Of a stretch of DNA of 38,986 bases, positions 2,843-23,567 are shown piece by piece (the stretch's first letter is position 1; every line of letters starts with the position of its first letter). The notes below the pieces were generated by a model, which saw only the letters and a list, made by a program, of their open reading frames with translations, did no database searches and was not told where the DNA came from. The stretch covers positions 1-38,986 of the IMG/VR virus record IMGVR_UViG_3300016474_000415; one strand, written 5' to 3'. The position numbers and the translations under genes are program-made. Source of the stretch: a virus. Its lineage: Duplodnaviria; Caudoviricetes.

Positions 2843-3622
2843 TCAGAGGATGTCGTACACGGCGCCGTGGGCCTTGGGCGCACGGCACTCCAGCGTCCAC
2901 TCCACCACCAGCTCGCGCTGCTCGGCGTCACCCGTCTTGGCCAGCTCGATGGTCTGGAAGGGGCGCAGGTAAGCGATGGCCAGCTTGTCGGACTGCAGCA
3001 CGAAGACATCACGCGCGGCCATGAAGCGGTTCGGTACGCACTGCAGCGTGCCGAAGTCGCTCACGTAGAAGTCCACCGAGCTGTAGAGCTTGGCGTCCTC
3101 GCTCTTGTCGAAGCGGGTCGCGTTGCCGGTAAAGCCGGAGAACGTCTGCTTGGCCGCGGGCGGCAGCATGATCATGTCGGGCTCACCGCCGGCGGTGTAG
3201 ACCTGCTGCAAGACGTCCTTGACCTGCGCCTCGGTGAAAGCGCGCTGCGTGCCGGCGGTGTAGCCGGTGTTGGCGGTGTAGGAAGCCAACGTGCCGCCGT
3301 TGCGGTTGACGTTGTCCACCACCCAACCACGCAGGCCGCGCGACTGCCGCGGCGAGGTCGCCAGCACGTCGAGCTGCGTGGCGCTGCTCTCCATGTCGCG
3401 CTTGATCTCCAGGCTTGCCAGGCTGAGCTGGTAGGCCAGCTCGTCCTTGCGGCCGGCCGGATTCATGGCCTGCTGCGTGCCCGAAACCACCACCTTCTTG
3501 GCGCTGATCTGCGTGCGGTTGGTCAGACGCGCCGTGACCGTGACGGTCTTGGCGGTCAGGTCGTCGCCTTCAGCCTGGGCGTTGTTGGTCACCGCGGCGG
3601 CCAGCTCCTGGGTTTGCCATTC
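2843..3622 (-). CDS. Major capsid protein, exon 2
   Basis: EWQTQELAAA..NRTQISAKKVVVSGTQQA..EIKRDME..YVSDFGTLQCVPNRFM; joins exon 1 to give KATNTLH|EWQTQEL, 307 aa in total. Confidence 0.9.
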   Translation of the reverse strand, partial: EWQTQELAAAVTNNAQAEGDDLTAKTVTVTARLTNRTQISAKKVVVSGTQQAMNPAGRKDELAYQLSLASLEIKRDMESSATQLDVLATSPRQSRGLRGWVVDNVNRNGGTLASYTANTGYTAGTQRAFTEAQVKDVLQQVYTAGGEPDMIMLPPAAKQTFSGFTGNATRFDKSEDAKLYSSVDFYVSDFGTLQCVPNRFMAARDVFVLQSDKLAIAYLRPFQTIELAKTGDAEQRELVVEWTLECRAPKAHGAVYDIL

Positions 3623-4472
3623 CAATCTGTTACTTGATGACCTGCTTGCGCAGGCGGGCAGTCATTTCTGCTGCCTCTGCAACTTTCGCTGCAGTTCGGG
3701 CTATATCATCCGCCGGTTATGCGGCCAAGCATATAGTCTCTGAGGATAGTCTACGGCTGTTCCACTCATCAATACGCGCTTGTTTGCGCTGAATCTTGAA
3801 ATACGCGCCTTCGCGTACCCAAGATTCTATCTTGATGTGAAACCGCATCGGTGTCTTGTAGCCGTCCTTGTAAGGCGGACAAACCGACAGCTTGCCGGTT
3901 TTAATGCCCACAGACTCCACAAGTCGCACGAATTCCGGAACCCAAGATTCGCAGCATTTGAACCCCATGTAGAACGATGTGTCCTTCTGGTGGTTCTTGC
4001 TGACGAACCCTTCGCTGTCCATCAACCCGGCAATAAAAGCCAATTTCTCGGCTTTGGACCATTGCCAAACGTAGGCAGGAATGATCTTCTTGGAGTCGGT
4101 GTCGTCCACCAGCCTCTTGCAAAGATCGGGGTCACCGCAGCGAAGCGAATGATTCGGCTTGCTGCTCTTCTTGACTTCGTGCGTGCAGATGTTCACCGGC
4201 CTGTCAGTCAACTCAGCCAACGCCGTCTTGACGGACTCTGCAAAGTCCGCATCAATGGTGTTGAGTCTGAACACCGGATACCACTGTGTTTGTGGTCCGC
4301 TGTTGTGACTAACCTGCAGGGTGACGCACCCGTCACCTAAGTACACCCCTAGGATGTACGCGTAACTCTTTCCTGCTGATTGTCCAATTTCCATTACTTT
4401 TCCTCTGCGGGGAATGGAACTCTAAGGAGTTTCCAGCATTTAGCTCGGTTTTACCTGCACAAATTATAGGCT
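3623..4472 (-). ncRNA. Group I self-splicing intron (850 nt) in the major capsid gene
   Basis: P1 exon CCUGCAU / intron GUGCAGG with U.G at the 5' splice site; P AAUGCUGGAAA, Q AAUCAGCAGG, R UCAGAGACUAUA, S GAUAUAGCCC; P3 CCGAGC/GCUUGG; P9 with GAAA loop; terminal G at 3623; removal restores the frame. Confidence 0.93.
3717..4394 (-). CDS. Intron-encoded double-motif LAGLIDADG homing endonuclease / possible maturase
   Basis: Motifs YILGVYLGDG and FIAGLMDSEG; lower GC than flanks; lies inside the intron. Confidence 0.88.
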   Translation of the reverse strand: MEIGQSAGKSYAYILGVYLGDGCVTLQVSHNSGPQTQWYPVFRLNTIDADFAESVKTALAELTDRPVNICTHEVKKSSKPNHSLRCGDPDLCKRLVDDTDSKKIIPAYVWQWSKAEKLAFIAGLMDSEGFVSKNHQKDTSFYMGFKCCESWVPEFVRLVESVGIKTGKLSVCPPYKDGYKTPMRFHIKIESWVREGAYFKIQRKQARIDEWNSRRLSSETICLAA

Positions 4473-4616
4473 ATGCAGGGTGTTGGTGGCCTTCGATTTT
4501 GAGGCCATATTCAAAACTGGGGTTTGCGTCGGACTTATCCTATAAATAATGTCCGTAAGATCCTCGCGATTACCAATCGCGGAGGTGGTCAGGAAGGTAT
4601 TGGTTGGTGCAGCCAT
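4473..4616 (-). CDS. Major capsid protein, exon 1 (48 aa)
   Basis: SD AAGGAGG, ATG 4616, MAAPTNTFLTTSAIGNREDLTDIIYRISPTQTPVLNMASKSKATNTLH; the unspliced frame stops two codons into the intron. Confidence 0.9.
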
Positions 4617-4641
4617 TTCGCTGCCTCCTTTCGTGTGAAGT

Positions 4642-5583
4642 TCAGAGGATCGTGGCGAACGCGCGGGCGGCGTCTTCGACCTTGCCCGACTTGTTCAGCT
4701 TCAAGAGCGCCGCAGTGCGTGGCTCGATGCCGGTGTTGCCCCCCATGCCGGGGCGCTCCACCTTGGTGGGCAGCGTGGCCACTTTCTTGGCCGCCGCCGA
4801 TGCCTTGCCGACCATCTGGTCGTACAGCATGGCTTTGCGGGCCAGGATCACCGCGCGCGCGTCGGCGATGTTGTTGATGGCGTCAGGCTCGTAGCCCTGC
4901 TGGGCCAGGTAGTCCCGGATCGCCACCTTCTCGGCCTTGCTCTTGGCTTCATCCCTCCACTCCGGCAGCTTGGCAAGAAGATCCTCCTGCTGCGCCTGCA
5001 AGTGGCGCAGATGCGCCTGTTGAGCCTCGGCCTGCTGAAGAGCGCTGATCCGTTGCTGTTCGGCGTACACCTGACTCAGCTGGGCTTGCCGGGCTTGCGC
5101 CTGGTGCTGCTGTTTCAGGTACTCCACCGGGTCGCTCTGGAGCAACTCTTCCCAGTTGGTCTGTTGCTGCTGCTGCAGCGCGCCTTCCAGTTGCGCCTGC
5201 ATGCGTTGCAGGTTTGCGGCGTAGGCTTGCCGCTCCTGAAGCGCTTGCGACCTTTCAGCCTCGGCAGCTCTGCGCTGCTCGGCGGCTTCCATGGTCTTGC
5301 GCGTGTAGTCCGCCTGGCGCTGGTAGCCGTTCTTCAGCTCGCTCAGCGGAACTTCCACGTCCTTGCCGTCAATCTTGACGGTGACCGTGGGTTCTGCCTC
5401 GGGAGCCTGCGCTTCGGCCTCTGGCGGGGCTTCGGCGGCTGCAGGTTCGGGCGGGGCCGCTTCAGGTTCAGCGGCCGCCTGCTTCTCATCAGGCTCGGGA
5501 GCGGGCTCCAGGGCGGCTGAAAACAGGCTGCTGGCTTGGTTGACGTCAAGCGGACCGTTGGATCCCTCGGAAGGGTTGTCCAT
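4642..5583 (-). CDS. Capsid scaffolding protein
   Basis: Acidic Pro-rich N-terminus, TVKIDGKDVEVPLSELKNGYQRQADYTRKT motif, coiled coil; SD GAGGAG before ATG 5583; directly upstream of the capsid gene. Confidence 0.85.
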   Translation of the reverse strand: MDNPSEGSNGPLDVNQASSLFSAALEPAPEPDEKQAAAEPEAAPPEPAAAEAPPEAEAQAPEAEPTVTVKIDGKDVEVPLSELKNGYQRQADYTRKTMEAAEQRRAAEAERSQALQERQAYAANLQRMQAQLEGALQQQQQTNWEELLQSDPVEYLKQQHQAQARQAQLSQVYAEQQRISALQQAEAQQAHLRHLQAQQEDLLAKLPEWRDEAKSKAEKVAIRDYLAQQGYEPDAINNIADARAVILARKAMLYDQMVGKASAAAKKVATLPTKVERPGMGGNTGIEPRTAALLKLNKSGKVEDAARAFATIL

Positions 5584-6030: not shown

Positions 6031-6137
6031 TGCTCAATCACTTCCTTTTCAATCGCCTCAAACGCTTCGATGAAGGCCTCGTTTTCCAGCACCTCTTTGG
6101 CGCGGGAGCCGGCGTGCAGGCGTTGTTCCAGGGTCAT
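5832..6137 (-). CDS. Conserved small helical head-module protein
   Basis: RAKEVLENEAFIEAFEAIEKEVIEQW..REKLW, typical of the gene between portal and scaffold. Confidence 0.75.
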   Translation of the reverse strand: MTLEQRLHAGSRAKEVLENEAFIEAFEAIEKEVIEQWTNSPARDQDGREKLWSYLHLLRKVRAHLVSTLETGKLAQVDLQHQQTLMDRAKQWGTGMLSRVA

Positions 6138-6541
6138 GCCCAGGCCCTGGACGGGGTTTGCGGATGCACTTGGAAGGCCGCCAACTCAGGCGCTTCGTCC
6201 GTGTGCCGCACGTTCACATGCCAGCCCTCCAGCGGAGCCATCTCAGGCATCTCGCCTTCATCGGTGGTCAGCGTCTTGCCCGTGGGCTTCCAGATCACGC
6301 CGATGACATCGACAGCGGCGTACTTGGGAACCTTGACGGTTTCCACCACATCGCCTTGCACGTTGGTCTGATCGGTGAACAGGATGCTGTCAGCTTCGGC
6401 TTGGTCAGCAAATTTCAGGAAGTAATCTGTGTACATGGTGTCTCCGTAAAACTGTTGTTTGACCCACTCCTGGCCCGCTGCCAGCACCTCTGGTGGCGTT
6501 TCGGATATCAAAGCGTTGAATGGGTCGAAGGGGTCGTTCAT
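6134..6541 (-). CDS. Hypothetical protein, possible chaperone of the upstream fibre (alternative start at 6436)
   Basis: DYFLKFADQAEA..VDVIGVIWKPTG..GWHVNVR..VHPQTPSRAWA; ATGA-coupled start at 6541, GGAG-preceded ATG at 6436. Confidence 0.65.
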   Translation of the reverse strand: MNDPFDPFNALISETPPEVLAAGQEWVKQQFYGDTMYTDYFLKFADQAEADSILFTDQTNVQGDVVETVKVPKYAAVDVIGVIWKPTGKTLTTDEGEMPEMAPLEGWHVNVRHTDEAPELAAFQVHPQTPSRAWA

Positions 6542-6615
6542 TTGCGTTTCCTGATCCACCGCACCAGCGGCATAAACGCCAAGCTGTCTAGGAAGCCTCG
6601 GAGGAAGTGGGTCAT
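6538..6615 (-). CDS. 25-aa basic amphipathic peptide
   Basis: MTHFLRGFLDSLAFMPLVRWIRKRK fits exactly between the upstream stop and an ATGA overlap. Confidence 0.4.
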   Translation of the reverse strand: MTHFLRGFLDSLAFMPLVRWIRKRK

Positions 6616-6617
6616 GA

Positions 6618-8144
6618 CTAGCTCGTTATGCTGACCAACTCGGCATTGCTCAAGCGACGAGGGTAGTAGGTGATGCGGCGGAGGTAGCCGTTGAGGAAGT
6701 TCCCATTAAGCTGATTACCTAGATTAAAAGCTGTAACCGATGGAACCGTTCCAGACGTATCTGTCAAAACAGCACCACCGTTTGTTGATAACGCAAAGTC
6801 ATTTGTGGCATAGGCAGCTGCCATTTTTGCCACATTGCCTGCTGTGTAAGTGCTGCTTGACAATCCTACTTGTGCAACACCGCCATCCGACACGAAGTAA
6901 TCTAAAGCATTGATGGCATCATTAAGGTACGCCGGGTTTATCCTGTTGTTTATCGTTCCGTTATTAAACGAAGTTGCTGTCGGGAATCCGCTAGTTGGCG
7001 CTGTCGAGTTAATGACAAACTCCGAATACACCGTCCCAGCAGTCGCATTAAACCAAGGGCTCAACGTATTCACCGACGCTTGATCTGCGTTGCGGGTCAG
7101 GGCTGTTGTGGTGGTGGGGATCACGCTCGTTGCAAACGCGCCTTGCTCAAGCTGCGGCAGGCCGATGCGGAGGGTGATGTCGATGGCGCCTGCAGTCACA
7201 TTAAACGCTATATACGGAAGCGCGTATATGGTTGCAGCAGCCGTAAAGGTTCTGGTAGCGGAAGACCGGACCAAAGTTCCTGTAAGGGGCAAATTGGTAG
7301 CTGTTGCGCCAAGCTCGTTGGTGGCATCGCGTTCTGAACTTTTTATCTGGACGTTACTGACATTTGTCGTTGTTCCACCAACCAATGCCGTCCAAACAGA
7401 GGATGTCCACGTTTGCCCAATCGACGCAGAAATAAATACACTGCTATCTAAATTTACTGATAATACATTGCTTGATGCAGCAGTTCCAAAAACACGTATA
7501 TCAACGTACGTAATTCCGTTGGAAACTCCCGTTCCTACAACTTGAGTTGAAAGCGTTAATGGGTTGTAGTAACCCCAATTTGTCGGAGCCGTCCCCGGCG
7601 TCCCAGCCACCGCACCCTGCATCGTGTTGTTGCGGATGCTGTTCGTCCTCGCCTCCTCAATCAGCAGCCCCCGCACTGCCAGGGTGGCGGGGTCGAAGTC
7701 CCGCCTGGACTCGTTGATCGCTGCGCTCGTCAGCACTCCGGCGCTGTTGAAGTAGGTGGCCGTGCTGGCGCGGGTGAAGGTGACACGGGGGTCGAGTACC
7801 CCGGCATCTACAAACACCAAGTCCAGGCTCGCCGCCGACCCTGACACGCCCGTGGACAGCGCGCCGACGTTGACCGTGCTGCTCGCGCCGTCGCTCAGCA
7901 CCGAGACCCAGCGCCGGCCTTGCACGCTCAGCACCACATGGTCGCCGCCTTGCACCAGCACATCGGCATTTGTGGCCGCGCTGGCGTCGTTGCTCAGGCG
8001 CACGTAGGCGCCCTGGCCGGTGGCTTTGACCACCACTTGCGTGGGCAGCTTGCGCGTGGTCTGGTCCCACGGGGTGTAGGAGGACACGGCTGTCCCGGTG
8101 GATGTGAGCGTCACCGAGTCCACCACAAAGAGCCGATTTAGCAT
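6618..8144 (-). CDS. Putative head fibre/spike with C-terminal concanavalin/LamG-like lectin domain
   Basis: FTRASTATYFNSAG, GLLIEEARTNSI, QLEQGAFATSVIPT, LNGYLRRITYYPRRLSNAEL motifs; decoration-like N-terminus. Confidence 0.7.
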   Translation of the reverse strand: MLNRLFVVDSVTLTSTGTAVSSYTPWDQTTRKLPTQVVVKATGQGAYVRLSNDASAATNADVLVQGGDHVVLSVQGRRWVSVLSDGASSTVNVGALSTGVSGSAASLDLVFVDAGVLDPRVTFTRASTATYFNSAGVLTSAAINESRRDFDPATLAVRGLLIEEARTNSIRNNTMQGAVAGTPGTAPTNWGYYNPLTLSTQVVGTGVSNGITYVDIRVFGTAASSNVLSVNLDSSVFISASIGQTWTSSVWTALVGGTTTNVSNVQIKSSERDATNELGATATNLPLTGTLVRSSATRTFTAAATIYALPYIAFNVTAGAIDITLRIGLPQLEQGAFATSVIPTTTTALTRNADQASVNTLSPWFNATAGTVYSEFVINSTAPTSGFPTATSFNNGTINNRINPAYLNDAINALDYFVSDGGVAQVGLSSSTYTAGNVAKMAAAYATNDFALSTNGGAVLTDTSGTVPSVTAFNLGNQLNGNFLNGYLRRITYYPRRLSNAELVSITS

Positions 8145-8145
8145 G

Positions 8146-8835
8146 TCAGACCGCCAGCAAAAGCATTTCAATGTCCTCCTCGTCCTGTTGCATCTGGTCG
8201 AACAGGGCCATCAGTTGTTCAAAGTGCCGCGAGTTGTACGCAGCCGTGTAGTCCTCCAGGCGCCCCGCCAGCTCGGCGTAGGCCTGCAGCGCGGGCAGAT
8301 CCACCACCTCGGGCTGGCCAGCCTCCTGGGCGGGCTCCTGGGCCGGTTCTGAGGCGTCCTCAAGCGCCTGCAGCGCCGCGGCCTGGCTGGCGTACACCAC
8401 CAGCTTGCCGTTGCGCTCCACCACGTAGCGCTTGCGCTTGGGCTTGTCGTCGTCGTAGCCGCCACCCACCGCGGTGGTGCCGACCTGCGCGGCCAGCACA
8501 TCCGCACCCTCGGCCAAGTCGGCTGAGAACTGCAGCGAGCCCGCGCTCACGCTGACCGCCGCCGCCAGCACATCGGCGCCTTCGCTCAGGCTGGCGCTGC
8601 TGGCCATCACCGGGCCGGCTTGCGCTGCCAGCGTGTCTGCGCCTTCGGTCTGCGCCAGCGAGGCGGCTACCTGCGGCCCAACTTGGGCGGCCAGAACATC
8701 AGCCCCCTTGGTTTGCGCCAGGCTGGATGCGACTGAAACGCCGACCTGTGCCGCCAGCGTGTCAGCGCCCTCGGTGAGCGCCGCGCTGAAGGATGGTGCG
8801 CCGCCGCTACTTTGAACGGCCAGCAGCAGGGACAT
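8146..8835 (-). CDS. Repeat-containing putative virion protein
   Basis: Five (T/S/A)(E/K)GAD(T/V)LAA repeats; acidic C-terminus DEEDIEMLLLAV. Confidence 0.7.
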   Translation of the reverse strand: MSLLLAVQSSGGAPSFSAALTEGADTLAAQVGVSVASSLAQTKGADVLAAQVGPQVAASLAQTEGADTLAAQAGPVMASSASLSEGADVLAAAVSVSAGSLQFSADLAEGADVLAAQVGTTAVGGGYDDDKPKRKRYVVERNGKLVVYASQAAALQALEDASEPAQEPAQEAGQPEVVDLPALQAYAELAGRLEDYTAAYNSRHFEQLMALFDQMQQDEEDIEMLLLAV

Positions 8836-22426: not shown

Positions 22427-23113
22427 ATGAGCGAGCTGCTCAAGATCAACGTCAACGACCACACCGAGCGAAAAAACGGCCTCACGTACCTGTCTTGGGC
22501 CTGGGCCTGGGCCGAGGTGCTGAAGCTGGACCCTGCGGCCACCTGGGAGGCGCAGGAGTTCAACGGCCTGCCCTGCATCGTCATGCCCGACACCACCTGC
22601 ATGGTGAAGGTCAGCGTGACCATCAAGGGCGACCGCAAGACCTGCTTGCTGCCGGTGATGAACCACCGCAACCAGGCCATCAAGAACCCCGACGCCTTTG
22701 CCGTCAACACCGCGCTGATGCGCTGCCTGGCCAAGGCCATCGCCATGCACGGCCTGGGCCTCTACATCTACGCCGGCGAAGACCTGCCCGAGCAGGACGA
22801 GCCCAAAGCCACCGACACCAAGCCCGCCGAGGTCAAGCCCCTCAAGCCGGGCGTGATCAGCGCCACCGACGGTGCCGCCGATGCGCTGCAAGAGCAGGAG
22901 CGCAACGAGCTGACCGAGGTGGCTCTTCACATGATCGACTGCCACAGAAATGGGCGCGACCTGGATGCCATCCGCATCTGGTACGACCCCGCCACGTTTG
23001 AGAGCAACGAGCAGCGCGTGTTTGTCTGGTCGCTCTTGAAGACCGAGTCCAAGCTCCGCGCCGTCATCAAGGCGAATTCCCCGTCCAACCAAAAAGAGGT
23101 GGCGAATGCCTAG
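22427..23113 (+). CDS. sak: Sak / Rad52-like single-strand annealing protein (DUF1071-type)
   Basis: LTYLSWAWAW..LPVMNHRN..MRCLAKAIAMHGLGLYIYAGEDLP. Confidence 0.85.
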   Translation: MSELLKINVNDHTERKNGLTYLSWAWAWAEVLKLDPAATWEAQEFNGLPCIVMPDTTCMVKVSVTIKGDRKTCLLPVMNHRNQAIKNPDAFAVNTALMRCLAKAIAMHGLGLYIYAGEDLPEQDEPKATDTKPAEVKPLKPGVISATDGAADALQEQERNELTEVALHMIDCHRNGRDLDAIRIWYDPATFESNEQRVFVWSLLKTESKLRAVIKANSPSNQKEVANA

Positions 23114-23567
23114 GTCTGGTGTCAATGCTTTGCCGGAGTACCCCGTCTTGGCGGCAATGGTGCAGCGCTGCACAAACCCAAATGACAGGTCATGGCAGCG
23201 ATATGGCGGCAATAGTGTAACGGTATGCGATCGCTGGCGCAAGTTTTCCAACTTCTATGCAGACATGGGCCCGCGCGAAAACGGTCAATCGTTGGACCGT
23301 ATAGACAACAAGAAGGGCTACAGCAAGGAGAACTGCCGGTGGACAACGGTAGATGTTCAAGCGCAAAACAAAGGCCCATACAAGACCACTCCGTTTGGCA
23401 TGAACGGGGTTGTTTGGCGCCAAGACTGCAAAAAGTACCGGGCACAGATTGGTACTCAAGGTCGGCAGATCATCCTTGGGCATTTCAAAACGATAGACGA
23501 AGCAATTGCTGCGCGCAGGGCCGGCGAGCATCGCTACTGGAACAAACCCGTCGCGGAGGCCGCGTGA
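23106..23567 (+). CDS. HNH-AP2 free-standing homing endonuclease
   Basis: MVQRCTNPN..YGG..VCDRW..SLDRIDNKKGYSKENCRW plus AP2-like GVVW..YRAQI..LGHFKTIDEAIAAR; lower GC. Confidence 0.8.
   Translation: MPRSGVNALPEYPVLAAMVQRCTNPNDRSWQRYGGNSVTVCDRWRKFSNFYADMGPRENGQSLDRIDNKKGYSKENCRWTTVDVQAQNKGPYKTTPFGMNGVVWRQDCKKYRAQIGTQGRQIILGHFKTIDEAIAARRAGEHRYWNKPVAEAA

Follow-up and report, generated by a model that had tools for sequence, protein, structure and literature searches.

We consider it very probable that the window, here meaning the whole 38,986-base stretch that was analyzed, carries a mobile group I intron in its sole major capsid gene, that this intron likely self-splices out of the late mRNA to restore a capsid protein of 307 residues, and that the intron is copied into intron-less alleles after its LAGLIDADG enzyme, as predicted, cuts them. 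Both splicing and DNA cutting are what we infer from sequence. The window is an entire virus record, IMGVR_UViG_3300016474_000415, rated 100% complete. Its genes include those for an integrase, a terminase, a portal, and a scaffold, along with a single major capsid gene of the SU10 type, and together they indicate a small temperate phage. The nearest relatives of the capsid (77-80% identity) are proteins in Delftia acidovorans and Pseudomonas genomes, and the host is probably proteobacterial on that basis. Elsewhere in the genome, a free-standing HNH endonuclease gene of lower GC content (55%) overlaps the end of a Sak-like annealing gene (23106-23567, plus strand). Open reading frames (ORFs) of lower GC content (56-58%) within the morphogenesis region (6618-8171 and 6134-6559, minus strand) are possibly an exchanged tail-fibre or decoration module.

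The intron occupies 850 nt of the minus strand (4472-3623), lies between the codons for His48 and Glu49, and has its terminal G at 3623. Exon 1 (4616-4473, minus strand) comprises 48 codons and ends with the His48 codon CAT, the last U of which pairs with G in P1. Exon 2 (3622-2843, minus strand) comprises 259 codons, begins with Glu-Trp, and matches the PHROG major head protein. The exons tile the 292 positions of the Pfam SU10_MCP model, exon 1 matching positions 5-43 and exon 2 positions 44-290. GC content was 51% for the intron versus 67% for exon 2. The original prediction had placed the insertion exactly at the His48/Glu49 junction of the major capsid gene, and the adjoining matches to SU10_MCP bear this out. 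Among the best 80 of 165 capsid loci found, the His/Glu junction was contiguous in 75, interrupted by the same intron in 2, and cut before exon 1 in 3; homologues naturally starting at EWQT with exon 1 as a separate gene, which the prediction had named as evidence against it, were not seen among the 75 informative ones. The claim that capsid production needs splicing is likewise supported; there is a single capsid gene, and exon 1 lies within the capsid in 75 of 75 informative intron-less homologues. The His48 codon was CAC in 61 and CAT in 13 of the 74 intron-less alleles with enough sequence. In the window it is CAT, which supplies the U required by the U·G splice site.

All elements of the ribozyme could be placed on the minus strand. 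P1 (4479-4454) has 7 bp, formed by exon positions 4479-4473 with the guide at 4460-4454, and a U·G pair at the splice site. An in-frame TAA at 4466-4464 is the third intron codon, and the P10 guide at 4464-4461 forms 4 bp. The 5' strand of P3 (4448-4443) pairs with 3730-3725. The P4-P5-P5a/b-P6-P6a 5' domain spans 4438-4362 and includes a Shine-Dalgarno-like AGAGGA (4406-4401) just ahead of the start codon of the ORF, which lies within the P5a stem. In the 3' half, P6a'/P6', P7, P3', and P8 lie at 3754-3698, with P7 formed by 3740-3734 and 3703-3698, followed by P9.0, P9 (GAAA loop), P9.1, P9.2 (GCAA loop), a conserved GUAACA, and the terminal G at 3697-3623. P2 is absent because P3 begins 5 nt after P1, a spacing shared by 80 of the 82 related introns described below. 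Only 3 nt separate position 3734 of P7 from position 3730 of P3', hence P7.1 and P7.2 are absent. Introns of subgroup IA2, including those of the T4 type, have P7.1/P7.2 between P7 and P3'. Subgroup IB introns (IB4-like) have no P7.1/P7.2 and possess a P5a/b extension, and the IB introns of rRNA genes resemble the window intron in having no P7.1/P7.2. The intron is thus not of the usual phage IA2 type; by these features its architecture is IB-like.

Covariation was examined in a MAFFT alignment of 26 5' domains from introns inserted after the His codon (site A), with the structure drawn from the window. Across P1, P4, P5, and P5a, 94.5% of 650 cells were paired and 15 of 25 pairs had two-sided changes; none of 500 shuffles paired as highly and slid controls reached 31-47%, with the proviso that related sequences can beat shuffles. 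The P1 U·G was present in 26 of 26 introns, four P1 pairs showed two-sided changes, and P5a, which is also found in ORF-less forms, showed them at 7 of 7 pairs. The 6 bp of P3 were fully paired in 72 of 76 introns through 32 different 5' strands (mean of 5.8 of 6 pairs, versus 3.7 with shuffled partners and a shuffle maximum of 4.5). The G-binding pair was G-C in 76 of 76. The P7 pair beside it is a mismatched A·C in 9 of 76 introns on separate tree branches, namely the window intron and 8 others, a non-canonical detail absent from the original prediction. The hallmarks that had been listed there (P1 with U·G, P/Q/R/S, P3, P8, P9, a terminal G, and no P2) were all present, and covariation in P1, P3, P4, P5, and P5a was above chance.

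A scan against Rfam, proposed along with the prediction, gave a divided result. The window intron was matched by RF00028 in two pieces of 17.8 and 14.9 bits, both below the cut-off of 50, since the core is split by the ORF. Of five relatives that have no ORF and share the insertion site, two passed the cut-off (L240 and L250, 63.2 and 60.6 bits), and the other three scored 25-26 bits. A model built from the five ORF-less introns matched both halves of the window intron (63.7 and 53.4 bits) and nothing else in the genome.

The intron contains a sense ORF of 225 amino acids (4394-3717, minus strand) for a two-motif LAGLIDADG endonuclease, with its body in the P6a loop, its start in P5a, and its stop in the P8 loop. 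The protein matches PF14528 above the cut-off, as do 39 of 39 aligned family members (39 proteins among 120 matches listed; 516 were found). Residues D21, K102, and E128 are invariant in all 39, and D21 and E128 are the catalytic acids of the two motifs, both intact in the window ORF. The AlphaFold model (pLDDT 90) matches PI-PfuI (E 1e-8, TM 0.71), PI-SceI, and I-DmoI. The identification of the ORF as a LAGLIDADG endonuclease is supported by profile, catalytic residues, and predicted fold. Ratios of dN/dS were about 0.07 against L002 and 0.08 against L087, and the ORF is under purifying selection by these sequence comparisons, its ends being constrained by RNA structure as well. An ATG or GTG lies in frame 12-27 nt 5' of the Q element in 79 of 82 introns, and in 72 of 76 the stop falls downstream of where R begins; judged from these positions, overlap of the ORF with the core at both ends is the rule across the family. 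Such overlaps go with tight translational control (PMC3984707), and by analogy the window endonuclease would be controlled in this way. We also considered whether the endonuclease ORF is held to the reading frame of exon 1 and rejected this, since the two share a frame in the window but frames are mixed among relatives. The endonucleases of L128, L134, L136, L141, L146, and L148 are longer (270-300 amino acids) and have, ahead of the core overlap, an additional C-terminal segment rich in Cys and His.

Scans for the endonuclease recovered 138 loci, 103 of them non-redundant, and capsid exons flanked 94 of the 103. Among the 9 that were not capsid-flanked, 2 keep the ribozyme and junction, and 5 of the other 7 were inspected, all of which are without a ribozyme. 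Free-standing endonuclease relatives without a ribozyme include L116, L125, L163, L201, and L216, as well as L126 and L152; L201 lies in a phage head module. Host capsids of the related introns range from 25 to 100% identity. Removal of 11 loci with too little upstream sequence or no P element or P1, and of 10 with no His-type junction, left a set of 82 introns. Fifty of these are at site A, and the other 32 use site B, which lies inside the Trp codon 4 nt farther downstream; site A was called by the CAT codon, and the presence of CAT in all site-A introns is accordingly not counted as a test. An in-frame stop occurs within 6 codons of the intron start in 82 of 82, and in site-B introns its first base is the splice-site U.

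Sites A and B were interleaved on the endonuclease tree, which came from a quick IQ-TREE search. The site-B intron L087, whose enzyme is 82% identical, has a near-identical core and ORF start (L087:395-600 versus 4500-4290 of the window); beginning at P4, about 85 nt agree with the window at every position, yet its P1 differs. A shared core with another P1 and insertion site points to guide exchange, and a swap of the P1 guide by recombination between sites A and B is likely on this sequence evidence. A separate search with the junction pattern returned 29 loci: 20 with the same enzyme, 5 that were ORF-less, 2 with another ORF, 1 that was too short, and 1 chance match. The ORF-less introns (L240, L243, L248, L250, and L252) are 249-256 nt long and occupy the same site as the window intron; L243, L248, and L252 carry two compensatory changes in P7. 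In the 2 with another ORF (L261 and L266), a 681-nt intron agrees in site and ribozyme type, and its L6 holds a LAGLIDADG-like ORF of another sort, single-motif and about 165 codons long. Some capsid genes have two or three inserts: L088, L102/L177 (near codon 35), and L134, L136, L144/L145, and L193 (more inserts in exon 2); L144 has a second P7-like core.

The endonuclease had no match at E 1e-3 by tblastn against 50,697 GenBank phage records, the intron 3' domain had none by blastn, and the 5' domain of a relative matched in pieces of 24-57 nt only. In the literature searched, which included PMC12350094 and PMC10580990, no account of this SU10-capsid intron family came up; supplements of the papers may name more introns in capsid genes. 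The family is apparently uncatalogued.

The last intron base was G in 54, A in 12, and C in 1 of 67 called 3' ends (13 of 67 non-G). Introns L128, L134, L136, L141, L143, L144, L146, L193, and L195 end in A and L148 ends in C; these ten form one clade (SH-aLRT 99, quick tree). The remaining non-G introns, L149, L150, and L181, are at site B, end in A, and fall outside that clade, with the near-identical pair L149/L150 on a long branch. Both pairs of P9.0 could form in 12 of 13 non-G introns, with varied compensatory letters, compared to 21 of 54 G-ending introns, and the first exon base was paired in P10 in 13 of 13 compared to 39 of 54; neither set of counts is independent of descent. The G-binding pair was unchanged in the non-G introns. 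Two ORF-less introns, L248 and L252, also end in A, and the junction differs from that of the near-identical, G-ending L243 (all about 250 nt) by one missing G. A shifted P9.0 register that uses the first exon G as the terminal G was rejected; it gave two pairs in 0 of 13 introns compared to 12 of 13, and would break the frame. We favor, with moderate confidence, the view that the window intron belongs to a large capsid-specific family, absent from the cultured phages searched, whose single ribozyme-endonuclease core repeatedly swaps its P1/P10 guide between sites 4 nt apart and has dropped the near-universal terminal G at least three times. Members ending in A or C would then join the exons of an essential, highly expressed gene by means of P9.0 and P10, their G-binding site being unaltered.

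Intron-plus and intron-less alleles occurred together in the contigs of 3 of 4 DNA runs (X2, X6, and X9), and X4 had intron pieces only; runs with a small share were not taken as evidence of habitat. An IMG/VR contig holds a near-identical intron-plus allele with 7 differences in the intron, and runs from other studies hold further ones with 1, 22, and about 10 differences. Exon 1 includes an AT-richer tract (4583-4494, minus strand, about codons 12-41) in which changes from the nearest intron-less allele are nearly all synonymous. Compared to that allele, L008 (92% over the region), 25 of codons 12-40 differ in the window, 23 synonymously and 2 non-synonymously; three of the first four exon 2 codons also differ, and there are few changes elsewhere. 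Third-position GC is 47% in the tract versus 92% in exon 2, and the tract is linked to intron-plus contigs in other runs. The tract is likely co-converted DNA from a lower-GC donor; a degenerate pattern for the tract matched the near-identical contig only and yielded no donor. Codons 42-47 are unchanged compared to L007, however, so six codons separate the tract from the intron, and one-step co-conversion alone does not explain them. This suggests nested tracts from successive hosts. A requirement of the intron for the AT-rich tract was rejected, since a sister intron 87% identical (L038) is without it over the last 28 codons compared. Among the codons of the tract are AGG and ATA, in a gene whose expression is high. 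On its plus strand, at about 4542-4549, is TATAAATA, which resembles a T4 late promoter, presumably by chance.

The proposed sequence of events is as follows. Ribosomes would halt at the TAA of intron codon 3, leaving the core free to fold. Exogenous G would attack at the P1 U·G, and the terminal G, P9.0, and the P10 guide would then direct ligation of His48 to Glu49. Because the start codon is in the P5a stem and the ORF spans P4, P6, P7, P3, and P8, folding and endonuclease translation should be mutually exclusive, and the enzyme would be made at a low level or from excised or unfolded RNA. The monomeric enzyme would cut near the conserved His-Glu-Trp codons when phages co-infect a cell or when a lysogen is infected, and repair would copy the intron and some flanking exon. 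The predicted cutting of intron-less alleles has indirect support in the dN/dS ratios, the fidelity of the insertion site, and the co-occurrence of both alleles. No sigma-70-like promoter was found in 3500-4800. No spliced RNA was found in the contigs of the RNA runs. The junction-skipping contigs of X17 and X18 are intron-less relatives; that of X17 has a CAC/GAG junction and 38 other differences from the window, and that of X18 has 72+38 differences. The X19 contig stops short of the junction, and X15 is probably DNA.

The A·C pair beside the G site and a P10 of only 4 bp indicate that splicing of the window intron may be slow or in need of protein help. These same two features speak for a rival reading in which efficient splicing needs the intron's own LAGLIDADG protein as maturase, or else chaperones of the host; capsid output would then depend on the intron protein. 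Maturase-like activity has been reported for the LAGLIDADG protein of a Thermotoga 23S intron (PMC3984707), and the A-ending relatives may require help. However, five ORF-less introns at the same site, two of them A-ending, indicate that the ribozyme family can persist without an ORF in cis, and the peripheral domains of the ribozyme are complete. We regard dependence on such a protein as a minority possibility, behind self-splicing.

The P7 mismatch, in a temperate phage with an integrase, could also be read as decay of the intron in a defective prophage that makes no capsid. This is very improbable, as near-identical intron-plus alleles exist in the IMG/VR contig and in other studies' runs, 9 of 76 introns on separate tree branches share the mismatch, and the ORF is under purifying selection. 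Even less credible is an absence of splicing, with exon 2 translated alone from the TTG at 3625, or with the insert being an intein or a free-standing endonuclease cassette. A TTG-started ORF of 260 amino acids does exist, and some endonuclease relatives are free-standing; nevertheless, the capsid protein includes exon 1 in every one of the 75 informative intron-less homologues, and the RNA covariation would be left unexplained. We rejected an intein in particular because the insert of 850 nt is not a multiple of 3, contains in-frame stops, and has no Hint domain match in Pfam. A self-splicing, mobile intron remains our preferred reading.

Phage introns mostly carry GIY-YIG, HNH, PD-(D/E)xK, or EDxHD enzymes and reside in polymerase, reductase, or terminase genes (PMC3984707), and IA2 introns are over half of viral introns (PMC11835236); the background given with the original prediction was fair in this respect. 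Its implied novelty of a LAGLIDADG intron in a capsid gene was not supported. The temperate mycobacteriophage LittleE has an 819-bp capsid intron with an antisense LAGLIDADG ORF, for which Pope et al. (2013) reported efficient splicing by RT-PCR and protein sequencing (PMC3706429), and a capsid-gene intron in lactococcal phage Tuc2009 is cited in the same article. Yutin et al. (2021) described group I introns in the major capsid protein (MCP) genes of Delta and Zeta crAss-like phages, several per gene (PMC7886860). Those are large gut phages whose introns were found by protein domains, and the likeness to the window lies in the presence of group I introns in major capsid genes. LittleE and the window are alike in intron length (about 820-850 nt), location in the major capsid gene of a temperate phage, the U before and G at the end of the intron, and a LAGLIDADG-type ORF; a 27-nt stretch of LittleE P9-P9.1 is 89% alike to the window. 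In contrast, the LittleE ORF is antisense, 177 amino acids long, I-CreI-like, and 3' of the core, with about 25% identity over 79 amino acids to that of the window, which is sense, two-motif, intein/I-DmoI-like, and located in L6, with core overlap at either end, in a gene for an SU10-type capsid. The intron-in-capsid arrangement with a LAGLIDADG ORF is therefore already known, and what is added here is the family of related capsid introns.

Other known introns share single features with the window. Nawrocki et al. (2018) found that all 39 IB4 and IA3 introns with LAGLIDADG ORFs in archaea and bacteria were in rRNA genes (PMC6125680); they resemble the window intron in cargo and, for IA3.1, in a P6 insertion, whereas the window family is in phage mRNA. 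The IA2 introns of the T4 td/nrdB/nrdD type also have a core-overlapping ORF whose translation is controlled and an in-frame stop after exon 1, but carry mostly GIY-YIG or HNH cargo (PMC3984707). In hexacoral mitochondria, the ND5-717 intron ends in A and ligated exons in vivo at lower efficiency, and the ORF of COI-884 reaches into the core at both ends as does the window ORF (PMC6545197). Those introns are mitochondrial and vertically inherited, however, and the window intron ends in G, with A ends in its relatives only.

For annotation, the capsid of this phage would be called truncated, and the same is likely in many environmental SU10-type phages. The capsid gene is a major, under-catalogued target of group I introns with intein-like LAGLIDADG cargo, in contrast to textbook accounts, which lean toward genes of DNA metabolism and toward GIY-YIG/HNH cargo. 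The family is a source of about 500 putative meganucleases and of compact 250-nt ribozymes, and provides natural material on how an ORF is expressed when both of its ends overlap the core. Two-site switching and the A-ending members are its most interesting part. They offer natural material on how a site shifts by guide exchange and on what selects the 3' splice site when the terminal G is missing, and the near-identical L243, ending in G, and L248/L252, ending in A, make loss of the terminal G directly testable.
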